Source: a virus (lineage: Duplodnaviria > Caudoviricetes). From it: 64,000 bases of DNA. Numbering within the stretch: the first letter of the stretch is position 1; each line of letters opens with the position of its first letter. Below, piece after piece: positions 6,488 to 11,828 of the stretch. The stretch is from the IMG/VR virus record IMGVR_UViG_2926558313_000004, positions 72,969 through 136,968 of that record. One strand, 5' to 3'. Position numbers and translations under genes: made by a program. The notes under the pieces were generated by a model. That model was not told the DNA's origin, made no database searches, and saw only the letters and a list, made by a program, of their open reading frames with translations.

Positions 6488-8701
6488 TTAACTCCTCCAT
6501 TTGTTTAACTCTTCTTTGCTTGCTATTAATTCATATCCCCTATTCCCTTCATGCTTTATCAGCCATCTATCTTCAATTAACTGATGCATTAATTCCTTTA
6601 TTACTTCTGGTCTTGTTCTCATCTCTTCTCTTAATTTTCTCGCTCTTACTTCCCCTGTGCTAGCGATAATGCGTTTAATTTTATCCAATGGACTTTCTTC
6701 TACTACTTTCGGATTTAAATACCGATTCGATTTTACATATGAGATAATTTTTTTATATGTTTTTTCTTCCTCATTAGCATTTAAAGAAATTACCGCACTT
6801 TGAAATTGCTCAAATGGTTTGATTTGACCTTTTAACTTCATGACTCCATGCCCACTACCCAATAATTCAAATGGAACACCTGTTCCAAAAACTGTTCTGT
6901 ATCCAGAAGAGGTTGATAATCTGAAACTAATCTTAGATGGAATATTGTCTTTAATTATGGTATCAACAATATTTTTATTTGGCTGCTGAGTAGCTATTAT
7001 TAAATGGATTCCAGAAGCCCTTGCTTTTTGACTTATTTTTTGAATACTGTCAACTATTTGGGGATTAGCCATCTTTAAATCTGCGAATTCATCAATTATG
7101 ATTACGATATATGGAAGAGGATCATGGGGATTTTTTTGATTATAACTCTTGATGTCTTTAGCACCTCTCTTTTTAAATAATTCATATCTTTTTTCCATTT
7201 CTTGAATAACCTCATTCTCCATCTTTAACGATGCCTCTTTTGGATCTGTAATTACTGAATTAACGTGAGGAAATTCTTTAAACTGTACTAGTTCTACTTG
7301 TTTTGGGTCAATAAGATAAAGATTAAGGCGACTAGGTGGAACAAAAAGGAGCATTGTTAAAATAGCTTGATTTAAAAAATTGGATTTTCCTCCTCCTGTC
7401 TCACCAGCTATAAGAAGATGGGTTAAAGAAGTCAAACAACGAAATATCGGTTTACCAAATGAATCGAGTCCGACAAAGAAAGGAATTTCCAACTCTATGA
7501 GAGAATTTTGTGTCTTTTTATCAGATAATACTTCACTGAGATAAATCGCATTCTTGTTTTGTTTGGCAATTAAAAACCCAATGGTGTCAGGTTTATCACC
7601 TTGTTCAATTGACAGTGAAGATACTCCAAGTGACACCTGAACATCTTCCTTTTTTGCAATAATTTTTGAATAAACTAAGTCTTTTGGTATGAAGTACTGA
7701 CACCTAATAAAACTAAGACCATCCATTTCATGATCTAATTTCATATCTTTTTCACTTTTAATTACACCTATTCTTTTTAATGTTTTTGGTATTTGTAGAG
7801 AAATATCTCTATATTCATTATTTATACTTTTATTATTGTTCATTGGCAATAGATCAAATATATTGTTTGCGGCATTAACACCCTCCTTTTCTTTGTGCCT
7901 CCCTTCTTCAATTATATCTTTTGTGAGTTCTATTGTATTGTCGTAAGCCAAGAACGAATTTATCTCATTTCTGCTCAAATATTGTTTTTCATAAAATATT
8001 GATGAACCACTTTTAATTTCTTCTATGAAAAAACAGTTCATTCCTGACAGTTTTTTGCACGAATATTTTATTAAGTCTTTAATTAATTTTATTTGGCTAT
8101 TGTTGTTGCTATCGATACCTATCATACATTCAAAACTATATTGATCATCAATTATTTTCTGCTCAATTTCTTTTATAGGACTTCTAATCTTAGATTTTGC
8201 TTTAAGGTTTAATATGTTCCAAATTGACCGATAAAAACCACTTTCTATCGCCAACTCATTTCCGGTGATAAAGTGCTCATATTTTTCTATCTCAGTATCT
8301 CTCCATGCCCCACTCCTTTTTTTAATCATTAATTTAATTATTATTTTATCATTGGGATCAAAAACATGGAGATTACTAAGCAAAGGAGAAATGAGTGAAA
8401 GACCATCTTCTACACCTATCGGAAAGAGCGAGTCTTCTTTCAATTTCAATCGAATCCAGTTGGCAGCATTAATATTAACTCCGTTTACAACTTCACTCAA
8501 TCCTCTGTTTTTCCAGAAATAAGGAGCATGAAGGTAAGACTTGCTTTCGTGTTTATTAATTTCCCATATAACTGACACATGTGCCATTTCTAAGTAGTGA
8601 TTATCAAATAGCTTTTCATGATCTTTAATCATGAAATAACCATATGAATATTTTTCTTCGTCGTTCACATTTATAAAATTTGACAATATTTTATTTAGCA
8701 C
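6488..8701 (-). CDS. FtsK/SpoIIIE-family DNA translocase
   Basis: HLLIAGETGGGKS, LIDPKQVEL, IIIDEFADL, KARASGIHLIIATQQP, LLGSGHG; C-terminal wHTH-like gamma domain. Confidence 0.9.
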   Translation of the reverse strand: MLNKILSNFINVNDEEKYSYGYFMIKDHEKLFDNHYLEMAHVSVIWEINKHESKSYLHAPYFWKNRGLSEVVNGVNINAANWIRLKLKEDSLFPIGVEDGLSLISPLLSNLHVFDPNDKIIIKLMIKKRSGAWRDTEIEKYEHFITGNELAIESGFYRSIWNILNLKAKSKIRSPIKEIEQKIIDDQYSFECMIGIDSNNNSQIKLIKDLIKYSCKKLSGMNCFFIEEIKSGSSIFYEKQYLSRNEINSFLAYDNTIELTKDIIEEGRHKEKEGVNAANNIFDLLPMNNNKSINNEYRDISLQIPKTLKRIGVIKSEKDMKLDHEMDGLSFIRCQYFIPKDLVYSKIIAKKEDVQVSLGVSSLSIEQGDKPDTIGFLIAKQNKNAIYLSEVLSDKKTQNSLIELEIPFFVGLDSFGKPIFRCLTSLTHLLIAGETGGGKSNFLNQAILTMLLFVPPSRLNLYLIDPKQVELVQFKEFPHVNSVITDPKEASLKMENEVIQEMEKRYELFKKRGAKDIKSYNQKNPHDPLPYIVIIIDEFADLKMANPQIVDSIQKISQKARASGIHLIIATQQPNKNIVDTIIKDNIPSKISFRLSTSSGYRTVFGTGVPFELLGSGHGVMKLKGQIKPFEQFQSAVISLNANEEEKTYKKIISYVKSNRYLNPKVVEESPLDKIKRIIASTGEVRARKLREEMRTRPEVIKELMHQLIEDRWLIKHEGNRGYELIASKEELNKWRS

Positions 8702-8714
8702 AATGTCCTCTCCT

Positions 8715-9797
8715 TTACCTAAGAAGTTTTTTACCAGCTAGCTTTACCCAACCAGCGGGTGTAGATAAATTAAGAGACTTTAATGTAAACATAGCTCTAT
8801 ATCCTTTTAACATCTCATTTATCCCTTTTTCTGAAGTAGAAGCCAAGTTCTTGATGAATCTTGGAGGATGGCTCATACGCCAGAAACCACCTGCTACGAT
8901 AATTATGCGAAAAATAGCTTCCCATCCACTGGAAGTCCCCCTAGTAAGAAAAATAAATAATCCTATAAAAGTTATAAATAGAGCATAAGTGAGTTGAACA
9001 ATACAAATATCTTTAATGTTCTCATACCACATAAAAAAGTATTTTTTTGTATCGGTAAATATCCAAGATGACAGTGCAAGAGGCGTAAGGGCGCTTAAAA
9101 CAAACAAGTCAAAATATCTTCGACCGTTTTGTAAAGCAACAGGTATTAAAGTTCCAATCAATAAAACGTCAAAACCAATGAAAGCTAATGTATCTAGTCC
9201 TGACAGAGTTGAAGCTGGCAAATCAGAAGAAGTAGACATGCCACTATAACCTAATTTAGTGATTAACCTAGATAGTTGACTGACATAATAAAAGACTTTT
9301 TCAAGAATAAATGGAGAAAATCCCATTCCTACGATTACAATCGCAAATCGTTTTACGATATCTGAAAAATTATCTGCTTTCTGCTGTCGATTAAACATAA
9401 GCTTTACCGAATTTAAGATAAATCCTATTGTCACCAATCCTATTGATACTCCCGAAAAAATCATTATGTTTTCCCTAAAATAATCATTAGTAAAGATAAA
9501 TGGAGGTATTTGTAGTACGATGCTTGAAATAGCTTCGTAACACCAGCCAAGCAAATCAATACTAGCTACAGCAATTTTTGAATTTAAATCAGCAATCCAA
9601 TCAAAAAACTGATTCAATTTGCTTCCAATTTCATCCCATAGATCTAATTGATCTTTTATACGCTCTCCGATCATTAGCCCCTTCTCTAATCCCTCATCAT
9701 TTTTGCTCAAATCCCAAATTATTTGAGCTGGTGACTTGTATTTAGTGTGAGCAAAAGCTTTTTCACAATTAAGTAGTATAAATGACATGGAAAACAC
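8715..9797 (-). CDS. Polytopic membrane protein, VirB6/TrbL-like; true start probably further upstream
   Basis: About 6-7 hydrophobic segments; RYFDLFVLSALTPLALSSWI...YFFMWYENIK pattern typical of VirB6-like proteins. Confidence 0.55.
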   Translation of the reverse strand: MFSMSFILLNCEKAFAHTKYKSPAQIIWDLSKNDEGLEKGLMIGERIKDQLDLWDEIGSKLNQFFDWIADLNSKIAVASIDLLGWCYEAISSIVLQIPPFIFTNDYFRENIMIFSGVSIGLVTIGFILNSVKLMFNRQQKADNFSDIVKRFAIVIVGMGFSPFILEKVFYYVSQLSRLITKLGYSGMSTSSDLPASTLSGLDTLAFIGFDVLLIGTLIPVALQNGRRYFDLFVLSALTPLALSSWIFTDTKKYFFMWYENIKDICIVQLTYALFITFIGLFIFLTRGTSSGWEAIFRIIIVAGGFWRMSHPPRFIKNLASTSEKGINEMLKGYRAMFTLKSLNLSTPAGWVKLAGKKLLR

Positions 9798-9829
9798 AGA
9801 AACAGGGATGATTATTTTTTTATATTTAT

Positions 9830-11023: not shown

Positions 11024-11164
11024 GAATAACCCCTCCGTATTTAGGACATTTTAAAGGTAACATGATTTTTGAGGTGATAACGCATGGCAAAAACCAAGGA
11101 AGAAAGACTGTCAGACACTATTAAGGATATTAATAATAACGGCAAAAATGCTTAGGAGGAAAAT

Positions 11165-11332
11165 ATGGAAGCTTTTATGGGATGGAAAATAGATAAGTTT
11201 GACTGGGAAGATGACTTGTTGAACTGCAGCAATAAAATTATAAGGGAAACAGGTCTTTCAAGAGAACGGTTATATACGGCATTACACGTTCTAAGTGAAG
11301 AAGGAATAATAAAAGCTAAAATAATAAATTAA
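11165..11332 (+). CDS. Small winged-helix protein (55 aa)
   Basis: RBS AGGAGG; IIRETGLSRERLYTALHVLSEEGIIK; below the ORF-track size cutoff. Confidence 0.55.
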   Translation: MEAFMGWKIDKFDWEDDLLNCSNKIIRETGLSRERLYTALHVLSEEGIIKAKIIN

Positions 11333-11828
11333 ACCAAATAACAATATTAGAAATGATGATATTAATAAATTCTGTAAGTTGCTCCTGATTATTGCTTAAA
11401 AGATCGAGGATGGAATGGTGTGGATTACTAAAAATCCCTGCTTCATTACCCATATTTTGAATTTGATCAATATATTGAGATGGATCTATATACTGGTCAT
11501 TAAACTTTACTCCGAAGTGAAGATGGTTTCCGGTGGAATGTCCGGTATTGCCCGAATAACCAATAAGCTGATCTTTTTCAATTGAATCTCCACTTTTCAA
11601 TTGATTGTTAAATTTGCTTAGATGACCATAGATAAAAGTTAATCCTTGTTCATTCTCAATCATGACGGTTTTTCCGGCATTTTTATCACCATAGTCTACA
11701 TATTTAATTACTCCTTCGGTAATTGAATAAAGTTCCTCTCCTTCTTTCATAGCAAAATCAATTCCATTATGAGGATTTTTTCTGAAAGCTTCTTGTTCAC
11801 CGAAATGTGAAGTGATTCTCCAAGTCAT
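11316..11828 (-). CDS. M23/LytM metallopeptidase with hydrophobic C-terminus
   Basis: HNGID, YGHL, GNTGHSTGNHLHF zinc motifs intact. Confidence 0.9.
   Translation of the reverse strand: MTWRITSHFGEQEAFRKNPHNGIDFAMKEGEELYSITEGVIKYVDYGDKNAGKTVMIENEQGLTFIYGHLSKFNNQLKSGDSIEKDQLIGYSGNTGHSTGNHLHFGVKFNDQYIDPSQYIDQIQNMGNEAGIFSNPHHSILDLLSNNQEQLTEFINIIISNIVIWFNLLF

Follow-up and report, generated by a model that had tools for sequence, protein, structure and literature searches.

A VirB6/TrbL-like and FtsK-type gene block beside tubRZ, a predicted DNA translocation module of large Bacillus phages

The window analyzed here is a 64,000-nucleotide stretch of virus record IMGVR_UViG_2926558313_000004 (Caudoviricetes), which corresponds to bases 72,971-136,970 of a 197-kb contig from a parent genome of 4.5 Mb (99.99% complete). 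A block on its minus strand consists of tubR, tubZ, a repeat array and the genes encoding an M23 peptidase, an Xre-type regulator, a protein with one transmembrane segment (one-TM protein), a two-TM protein, a VirB6/TrbL-like protein and an FtsK-type motor, in this order. An earlier sequence-only reading had described the genes downstream of tubRZ as a candidate minimal DNA-transfer system. The list of open reading frames (ORFs) and the Pfam and PHROG scans confirmed that the named genes are present at the coordinates given there and are co-oriented; an unbroken operon was not found, as two small plus-strand ORFs lie between the M23 and Xre genes. The module is proposed to build a small, membrane-embedded apparatus, predicted to translocate double-stranded DNA (dsDNA), in phages and megaplasmids.

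The block was compared with 14 other loci: the phages Bastille, 010DV004 and Bp8p-C, phage 0305phi8-36, seven Bacillaceae genomes found by a pattern scan of 185,579 species, and three IMG/VR contigs, the last two sets being pattern-limited lower bounds. The two-TM and VirB6-like genes were adjacent and followed by a large ATPase gene in all 14 loci, the ATPase being of the FtsK type in 13 and of the orf201 type in 0305phi8-36. A cytomotive partition gene lay directly upstream in the window and in every other locus. It encoded TubZ in the window and in loci L010, L018 and L019, and an actin-like ALP_N protein in the other 11 (annotated only as a 197-aa fragment in Bp8p-C), so that two unrelated filament systems fill one position. 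The module is a conserved block of large Bacillus phages, mostly lytic Herelleviridae with an actin-like partner, and is no peculiarity of tubZ elements.

Membrane proteins, peptidase and motor

The VirB6/TrbL-like polytopic protein is encoded by a 360-aa frame (8715-9797, minus) with 5-6 hydrophobic segments and matches phrog_3750 (4.6e-70); the version of the gene caller begins at residue 42 of this frame. The window protein itself remained sub-threshold in Pfam (TrbL, E 0.26). An exhaustive HMMER search identified 116 relatives, 63 of which were aligned with the window protein, and Pfam TrbL_4 was hit by 6 of the resulting 64 sequences (best 3.2e-9). The protein scored 0.95 to the TrbL_4/TrbL_5 clusters of the ESM Atlas, and its Atlas model superposed on a TrbL_2 cluster with TM-scores of 0.69/0.75. 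The AlphaFold (AF2) model built from the 64-sequence alignment reached a pLDDT of 81.7, and the top five matches in a Foldseek search against PDB were all TrwI/VirB6 of the R388 type IV secretion system (T4SS), with a best E of 3e-3 and none below 0.001. VIA-align, a method independent of Foldseek, was run against 48,161 chains and ranked Legionella DotA (Z 10.2) and TrwI (Z 10.1) above the next match (7.1). Because middling Z values are common among helical proteins, the assignment was weighted on the agreement of the four lines (Atlas, Pfam hits of the relatives, Foldseek and VIA-align), on which the protein is VirB6/TrbL-like, as had been read from the sequence.

The two-TM protein (9830-10366, minus; 178 aa from the ATG at 10366; phrog_3528, 6.8e-16) begins with a long leader that ends in AxA and continues into two TM helices, located at 106-137 and 154-186 of its 189-aa frame, and homologues were present in 14 of the 14 other loci. 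It had been called VirB2/TrbC-like. The two-TM layout was confirmed, and the family assignment is a weak lead: comparison with T4SS pilins gave Atlas scores of 0.86-0.87 with TM-scores of 0.38/0.45, hhalign against five T4SS_pilin proteins gave a weak match (56.6%, E 1.1e-4, 50 columns), and Pfam TrbC did not match the protein. The likeness to T4SS pilins is one of layout only. A separate locus, L026 (265-2715), encodes an 816-aa polytopic protein with an internal T4SS_pilin domain, which looks like a fusion of a pilin-like and a channel-like protein.

The one-TM protein (10299-10541, minus; 80 aa) has an N-terminal hydrophobic segment at residues 4-32 and a basic tail. No family match was obtained in the Pfam or PHROG scans; phmmer matches were found in L010 and L012, and ORFs with a similar TM segment and basic tail were recognized by reading the sequences after the Xre gene in L013, L015, L016, L018 and L019, and also in Bastille.

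The M23 metallo-endopeptidase (11316-11828, minus; 170 aa) was supported by Pfam (PF01551, 3.1e-27, 95 bits) and by phrog_7767 (1.9e-50), in agreement with the original call, which Pfam also upheld for the Xre gene. Of 10 aligned homologues, all retained the metal ligands HxxxD and nine retained HxH, and both are present in the window protein, which ends in a hydrophobic or amphipathic C-terminal tail. Counting the window, the gene occurs in 10 of 15 loci and is accessory.

The motor gene (6488-8701, minus) encodes a predicted soluble FtsK-type dsDNA motor of 737 aa (PF01580, 3.6e-43; phrog_3551, 2e-157) that is composed of an N-domain (about 1-290), an FtsK alpha/beta region (about 300-660) and a C-terminal winged helix (about 670-737). 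The Walker-type motifs G-x-T-G-x-G-K-S and DEF/DEY are conserved, and one ATPase domain only is present. The protein is 37-38% identical to the two FtsK/SpoIIIE-type motors of the host; unlike these, it has no hydrophobic segment that could be found across its 737 aa, and it therefore needs a membrane partner. A profile of 11 family members matched FtsK in PDB with 1.3e-92, EccC with 1.3e-42 and pCW3 TcpA with 9.5e-39. Similarly, the motor model superposed on the FtsK-dsDNA structure 6t8o with a Foldseek TMt of 0.80-0.85 (30% identity), compared with about 0.67 for TcpA. On these results, the motor resembles FtsK much more closely than it does TcpA or EssC.

The AF2 model of the motor ends in three helices and a hairpin (residues 671-725), the shape of a winged helix. 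The C-terminal domain of the homologue from L013, one of three such domains scanned, matched MarR (1.9e-7) and, only weakly, FtsK_gamma (0.053). The C-terminus of the window motor itself gave no match to FtsK_gamma (PF09397) and nothing below E 0.49 in a phmmer search against PDB. The original description of an FtsK/SpoIIIE ATPase with a winged helix-turn-helix (wHTH) end is supported by the profile, Foldseek, the AF2 model and the MarR hit of the homologue. Pfam has no family for the N-terminal 288-290 aa or so; this N-domain is homologous to that of orf201 of 0305phi8-36 (hhalign 97.6%, E 3e-12), and its presence in such a differing ATPase marks it as a module-specific adaptor.

The FtsK/SpoIIIE ATPase fold is common to EssC and EccC, and the M23 protein carries no signal peptide, so the block could also be read as an EssC/T7SS-like or T4SS-like exporter of a phage protein, for example the signal-less M23 protein. 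This is very improbable, since the motor matches FtsK about 50 orders of magnitude better than EccC, falls below the EssC/EccC models TIGR03924 and TIGR03928 (107-111 bits against cut-offs of 509-778) and combines one ATPase domain with a winged helix of the DNA-binding type, and the presumed cargo is absent from 5 of the 15 loci.

Distribution and absence of conjugation genes

In tblastn searches, matches to the motor were found in 340 phage records (203 Bacillus phages) and matches to the VirB6-like protein in 162 (160 Bacillus phages), all below 60% identity. The 162 records that matched the VirB6-like protein included no Clostridium phage. Near-identity DNA searches with the 5.3-kb block returned nothing from the phage or plasmid collections, a word-based protein search returned only four relatives of the VirB6-like protein and two of the motor N-domain, and phrog_3750 was found in 0 of 400 other genomes sampled from the phylum. 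The named hosts of the loci and phages are Bacillaceae spore-formers. The core (the helix-turn-helix (HTH), small TM, two-TM, VirB6-like and FtsK genes) was also observed on 12 plasmids of 121-364 kb, with no partition gene evident; 10 of the plasmids come from Bacillus, and all 12 with the VirB6-like gene were typed as non-mobilizable. One of these is the Bacillus cereus plasmid pBFR_2 (L027, 312 kb; core at 6344-11176).

The closest described systems in phages are those of the Bastille-like Herelleviridae and of 0305phi8-36. Bastille, 010DV004, Bp8p-C and Bc431v3 carry the phrog_7767 M23, phrog_3528, phrog_3750 and phrog_3551 genes in the same order as the window, with an iteron array after the partition adaptor, and the window proteins are matched at 32-36% identity by their motors, at 33-35% by their VirB6-like proteins and at 42% by their M23 protein. 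They differ in being annotated as lytic myoviruses and in having an Alp7A-type actin, no Xre gene and TTTCCC-type repeats. In the parts of the literature consulted, discussion of the block is confined to the FtsK/SpoIIIE-like and segregation genes, which have been flagged as 'sporulation-related' since 2013 (PMC3601020, PMC4197329).

In 0305phi8-36, orf200-207 were described as a 'DNA translocation operon' by Pathria et al. 2012 (PMC3357382); the sections of that paper used here assign to it a relaxase resembling MobC, a TraG-like ATPase that has no membrane domain, a homologue of virB6 and a gene resembling mreB. They also report that deletion of orf200-207 caused no laboratory growth defect, with plaque size and yield unchanged, and propose that phage DNA spreads from cell to cell in biofilms. 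The VirB6 homologue gp203 matches the window protein (4.5e-13), the two-TM protein gp204 (1.8e-4 to the window protein) is encoded just upstream of it, a large soluble ATPase whose N-domain is homologous to that of the window motor is encoded just downstream, and a cytoskeletal partition gene with a small adaptor lies upstream. The window block accordingly has the features that characterize the 0305phi8-36 type: a virB6 homologue, a large soluble ATPase carrying the common N-domain, and a gene for a cytoskeletal protein, which here is tubulin-like. In contrast to the window, orf201 carries no FtsK Pfam domain and its best BLASTP match to the window motor is not significant (E 0.092), the filament partner is actin-like, no M23 or Xre gene is present, and a Replic_Relax-like gene (23.6 bits, just under the cut-off) that has no counterpart in the window genome follows orf201. 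The window version departs from the published operon in its FtsK-type motor, its tubulin partner and its Xre switch, and in having no relaxase. The motor of 0305phi8-36 (L008, 9927-13170) is the only one with a relaxase-like gene behind it; the type of motor may be correlated with the presence of a relaxase, in a comparison of 1 locus with 13. The gp27.x genes of SPO1 are a counterpart of the 0305phi8-36 operon. Apart from PMC3357382, literature searches for a pump linked to a tubulin or to VirB6 returned nothing beyond general remarks on FtsK and segregation genes. The homology of the motor N-domain to that of orf201 is new.

The sequence-only reading had reported that relaxase, VirB4 and VirD4 are missing from the window, and had allowed that a full T4SS and relaxase elsewhere on the replicon might account for the genes. 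With control genomes positive, no match was found in the whole genome for VirB4 (AAA_10, PF12846; CagE_TrbE_VirB, PF03135), for the VirD4/TraG coupling protein (T4SS-DNA_transf, PF02534; TraG-D_C, PF12696) or for relaxases (Relaxase, PF03432; Rep_trans, PF02486; Mob_Pre, PF01076; Replic_Relax, PF13814), eight families in all, so that the reported absence extends to the whole assembly. The neighbouring 222-aa HTH protein was considered as an orf200-type relaxase and showed no similarity to it. A reading as classical conjugation is not rescued by any T4SS or relaxase in the rest of the genome.

Conjugation between separate cells that is independent of a relaxase was the first alternative of the sequence-only reading, and a dsDNA pump needs no relaxase. 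Streptomyces TraB/clt/Spd systems operate without one, using a single FtsK-like motor that ends in a wHTH, a cis site of short repeats and small membrane proteins. The window block resembles them in each of these features, but its motor lies outside the TraB family (equivalog model NF041214, 41.1 bits against a cut-off of 800) and has no membrane segment of its own, and the hosts here are unicellular spore-formers. TraB systems are not known to include a VirB6-like protein. The Tcp T4SS of pCW3 (TcpA, TcpH) likewise pairs an ATPase of the FtsK fold with a VirB6-like protein and also has small TM proteins and a hydrolase for the cell wall, and TcpA is a structural match to the window motor at the E value and TMt given above; in contrast, the window genome has no VirB4-type ATPase or relaxase, and its motor is nearer to FtsK and has no TcpA-like TM helices. 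Conjugation in the TraB style, which is close to the 2012 idea of propagation by translocation and to its proposed spread of phage genomes through biofilms (in the sections of PMC3357382 used here), is supported by the joint presence of a dsDNA motor ending in a wHTH, a channel protein like VirB6, a pilin-like protein, a hydrolase and repeats reminiscent of clt. It is nevertheless improbable: the genome gave no match to VirB4, the ATPase that all T4SS have as their signature, the block holds no adhesin or mating-pair genes, most carriers are lytic and would kill the donor, the plasmids with the gene were all typed as non-mobilizable, and the TraB model scored far below its cut-off.

All carriers have long genomes (121-364 kb), and in Herelleviridae the block lies among early-type small genes. 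Push-pull genome entry is known for other phages, and a pump made early could pull in the rest of a long genome, or block or expel superinfecting DNA. Such an entry or exclusion device would leave the constant link to a partition system and the iteron site unexplained, the module is found on megaplasmids as well, and the deletion of the 0305phi8-36 operon left plaque size and yield unchanged, according to the sections of PMC3357382 cited; the explanation is considered distinctly improbable.

Partition cassette, iteron array and regulatory elements

TubZ (12032-13141, minus) is a TubZ-like GTPase of the tubulin/FtsZ family with 369 aa, a putative type III partition motor (PF00091 Tubulin, 1e-14; phrog_4733 'tubulin PhuZ', 1.5e-7), with homologues at the same position in L010, L018 and L019. 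The gene for the 92-aa tubR-like DNA-binding adaptor (13138-13416, minus) overlaps the tubZ start and gave weak hits of the wHTH type (PF22381, 0.0011; TIGR01889, 1.7e-4); homologues were found upstream of TubZ in the same three loci. The small DNA-binding gene overlapping a gene for a tubulin-family GTPase is shared with the TubZRC systems of pBtoxis and Clostridium phage c-st. The repeat array, a candidate for the centromere of such a system, is located downstream of tubZ, but arrays of this build also occur in actin-type loci. In the phage collection, relatives of TubZ were found in Bacillus phage G only (2 records, 32% identity). In phage G (L028, 7686-9113 and 14356-15180), the TubZ relative has a small gene just upstream, and about 5 kb away lies a gene annotated as 'replication initiation by nicking, 27.3 in phage SPO1'.

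The iteron array (11927-12005), located between tubZ and M23, consists of five GTTACC copies in direct orientation and one in inverted orientation, with start-to-start spacings of 12, 21, 13, 12 and 13 bp. TGTTACC occurs 14 times in the window compared with 4.5 +/- 1.9 expected, a number that none of 100 shuffles reached; a further copy precedes the Xre gene. Arrays of the same build were observed at the same place in L010 (GTTCC-type), in L011, L013, L015 and L018 (TTACC-type) and in L016, and a TTTCCC-type array was present there in three Herelleviridae loci (L006, L007 and L009). Every lineage has an array of this architecture located between its partition genes and its pump. In Bastille, the array is kept without M23. 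The arrays of L013 (actin-type) and L018 (tubulin-type) align base for base, and the partition cassettes upstream of them are unrelated. The array thus appears to go with the pump and not with a particular partition adaptor, and its conservation beside the pump when the partition cassette is swapped is new. It is a candidate cis site, either a clt-like loading site or equally a centromere or an operator, and it may be bound by the winged helix of the motor, which alone among DNA-binding domains recurs in 13 of the 14 other loci. A dispersed code like that of KOPS was also considered; outside the array, GTTACC/GGTAAC was near the third-order Markov expectation in the prophage (for example 13 against 9.5 +/- 3.1). 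Since the motif has no polar distribution along the prophage, the array would be a single loading site and not a KOPS-like code.

The constant neighbourhood of partition genes is one argument for a segregation aid without transfer, in which a motor held at the membrane or the divisome by the VirB6-like protein would clear or pull a large, low-copy phage genome from the closing septum and so complete the work of TubZ or the actin-like protein. FtsK, SpoIIIE and SftA serve the chromosome in this way, and SftA is a soluble FtsK-like protein. The identity of 37-38% between the motor and the FtsK/SpoIIIE-type motors of the host speaks for this explanation, as do the position of the module in SPbeta-like loci between partition genes and replication-type genes (RecD2, HTH_36/DnaD-like, UvrD) and the presence of the core on non-mobilizable Bacillus megaplasmids of 121-364 kb; Bp8p-C is, moreover, listed in a secondary source, in the part consulted, as a plasmid prophage with a ParM-like system (PMC8026635). 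It leaves unexplained why the membrane partners are of the T4SS channel type and why a wall hydrolase is encoded in 10 of 15 loci, and the element here looks integrated. The explanation is considered unlikely.

The Xre-type regulator (10613-11023, minus; 136 aa) has its HTH at residues 76-128 (HTH_19, 1.9e-5; HTH_26, 5.2e-5). The gene was found in the window and in nine of the ten loci L010-L019, with no match in the short contig L017; neither 0305phi8-36 nor any of the three Herelleviridae loci gave a match. Two small ORFs read from the sequence (11084-11332, plus) are divergent from it, one of 23 aa (11084-11155) and one of 55 aa (11165-11332). Relatives of the acidic 23-aa peptide were present in 6 of the 7 gaps examined and an ORF of 52-55 aa in 3 of the 7, and the 55-aa ORF carries a 'TGLSR' HTH-like motif. 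The Xre gene and the divergent ORFs possibly form a regulatory switch of their own that would control the pump genes.

A promoter- or operator-like block (10564-10597, minus) is located between the Xre and membrane genes and holds the string GTAATAGT-15-AATACACT at 10594-10564, where the sequence-only reading had placed it as a sigma-E-like promoter. It aligned across seven loci (the window, L011, L013, L015, L016, L018 and L019) with an invariant ATA..ACA core. With an ATA-containing -35, a 14-nt gap and AATACACT, the window block bears a tentative resemblance to a mother-cell sigma-E/K promoter. Readings as a sigma-F/G or a sigma-A promoter were poor fits by eye. The sigma-E/K consensus is given as figure logos only in the part of PMC517825 consulted.

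Trans-septal transfer and genomic setting

Trans-septal transfer of the element's own dsDNA, into the forespore or a sister cell, is the function tentatively favored here, at slightly less than even confidence. The soluble, single-domain FtsK alpha/beta motor with its winged helix would have lost the usual FtsK membrane anchor and would dock through the module-specific N-domain on the VirB6/TrbL-like, two-TM pilin-like and one-TM proteins, accompanied in most loci by the M23 peptidoglycan endopeptidase. Its substrate would be the DNA of the element itself, presumably marked by the adjacent iteron array through an array-binding protein, and the adjacent cytomotive system (TubZ/TubR here, an actin-like pair elsewhere) would position this DNA for the pump. 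A non-integrated phage genome could then cross the septal barrier into the forespore, and the phage would ride in the spore; alternatively, the genome could reach a sister cell in the same chain, no virion being needed. The forespore is somewhat ahead of the sister cell as the destination, and the distribution of the module agrees better with a device for the forespore or septum, the second alternative of the sequence-only reading, than with conjugation between free cells. The fullest version, in which temperate and lytic Bacillus phages share a filament-fed, relaxase-free hybrid of a T4SS channel and an FtsK motor that would recognize the iteron site and pump the whole phage genome through the septum, is doubtful.

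Translocation of phage genomes into forespores has been observed as virospores, and Par-like genes of SPO1 are discussed alongside them in the portion consulted of the 2026 paper (PMC12991052). The lack of a laboratory growth defect after deletion of orf200-207, as given in the sections of PMC3357382 used, fits a role outside ordinary lytic growth. In Herelleviridae, sigF/sigG-like genes are located near the block (PMC3601020), and Spo0A is present in the host genome of the window element.

Several points weigh against trans-septal transfer. This copy looks integrated, and an integrated prophage enters the spore with the chromosome, so that a pump would be unneeded. The restriction to Bacillus may reflect gene exchange among host-sharing phages rather than sporulation. 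The array could simply be the partition centromere, and its motif shows no genome-wide polarity of the KOPS type. The tentative sigma-E-type reading of the promoter-like block fits the window better than the related loci, and no Sigma70_r2 gene was found in the prophage part of contig C5, the sole hit on that contig being in the part with host G+C. The M23 gene is missing from a number of loci, five of the 15, and its product, in which no signal peptide was found, would lack an evident route to the cell wall.

If trans-septal transfer takes place, it would constitute a route of phage transmission and persistence independent of the virion, would supply a molecular mechanism for the old observation of virulent phage genomes inside spores, and would mean that phages have reassembled components of conjugation around a motor for chromosome segregation. 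The combination of one membrane core with either of two unrelated filament systems and either of two motor ATPases is a natural example for the study of how T4SS-like machines are put together from modules. The module is common (162 phage records), and close versions exist in phages of the tractable B. subtilis.

The element appears to be a SPbeta-like prophage of at least 149 kb that is integrated in this assembly and cut at its left end by the end of the contig. G+C is about 31% over the first ~149 kb of the contig and about 47%, the host level, over the next 40 kb, with a jump from about 0.34 to 0.49 at a junction at about 148,700-149,000 of the contig, outside the window. Reading of translated N-termini indicated that the ORFs directly past the junction resemble ordinary chromosomal genes, some of the sporulation type, tentatively named ppiB, lysA, spoVA, sigF and dacF from these N-termini. 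The left end of the contig stops inside a transposase-like ORF, and the other prophage end is unassembled. As the element runs into DNA with host G+C and looks integrated, the label of phage-plasmid in the sequence-only reading was not upheld.

Divergent from the tubRZ-pump block lies a gene for a YonO-like single-subunit RNA polymerase of 860 aa (14248-16830, plus; phrog_8308, 1e-283), which shares about 53% identity with the polymerases of the SPbeta-group phages SPbeta and phi3T and of Clostridium phage D-1873. Downstream of the pump (1365-6348, minus), genes encode a RecD2-type helicase, the HTH_36/DnaD-like 222-aa protein and a UvrD-type helicase; this trio, or a pair from it, was also found downstream of the pump in L010, L011, L013, L015 and L018. 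The low-G+C part of the contig also carries a long series of large plus-strand ORFs.

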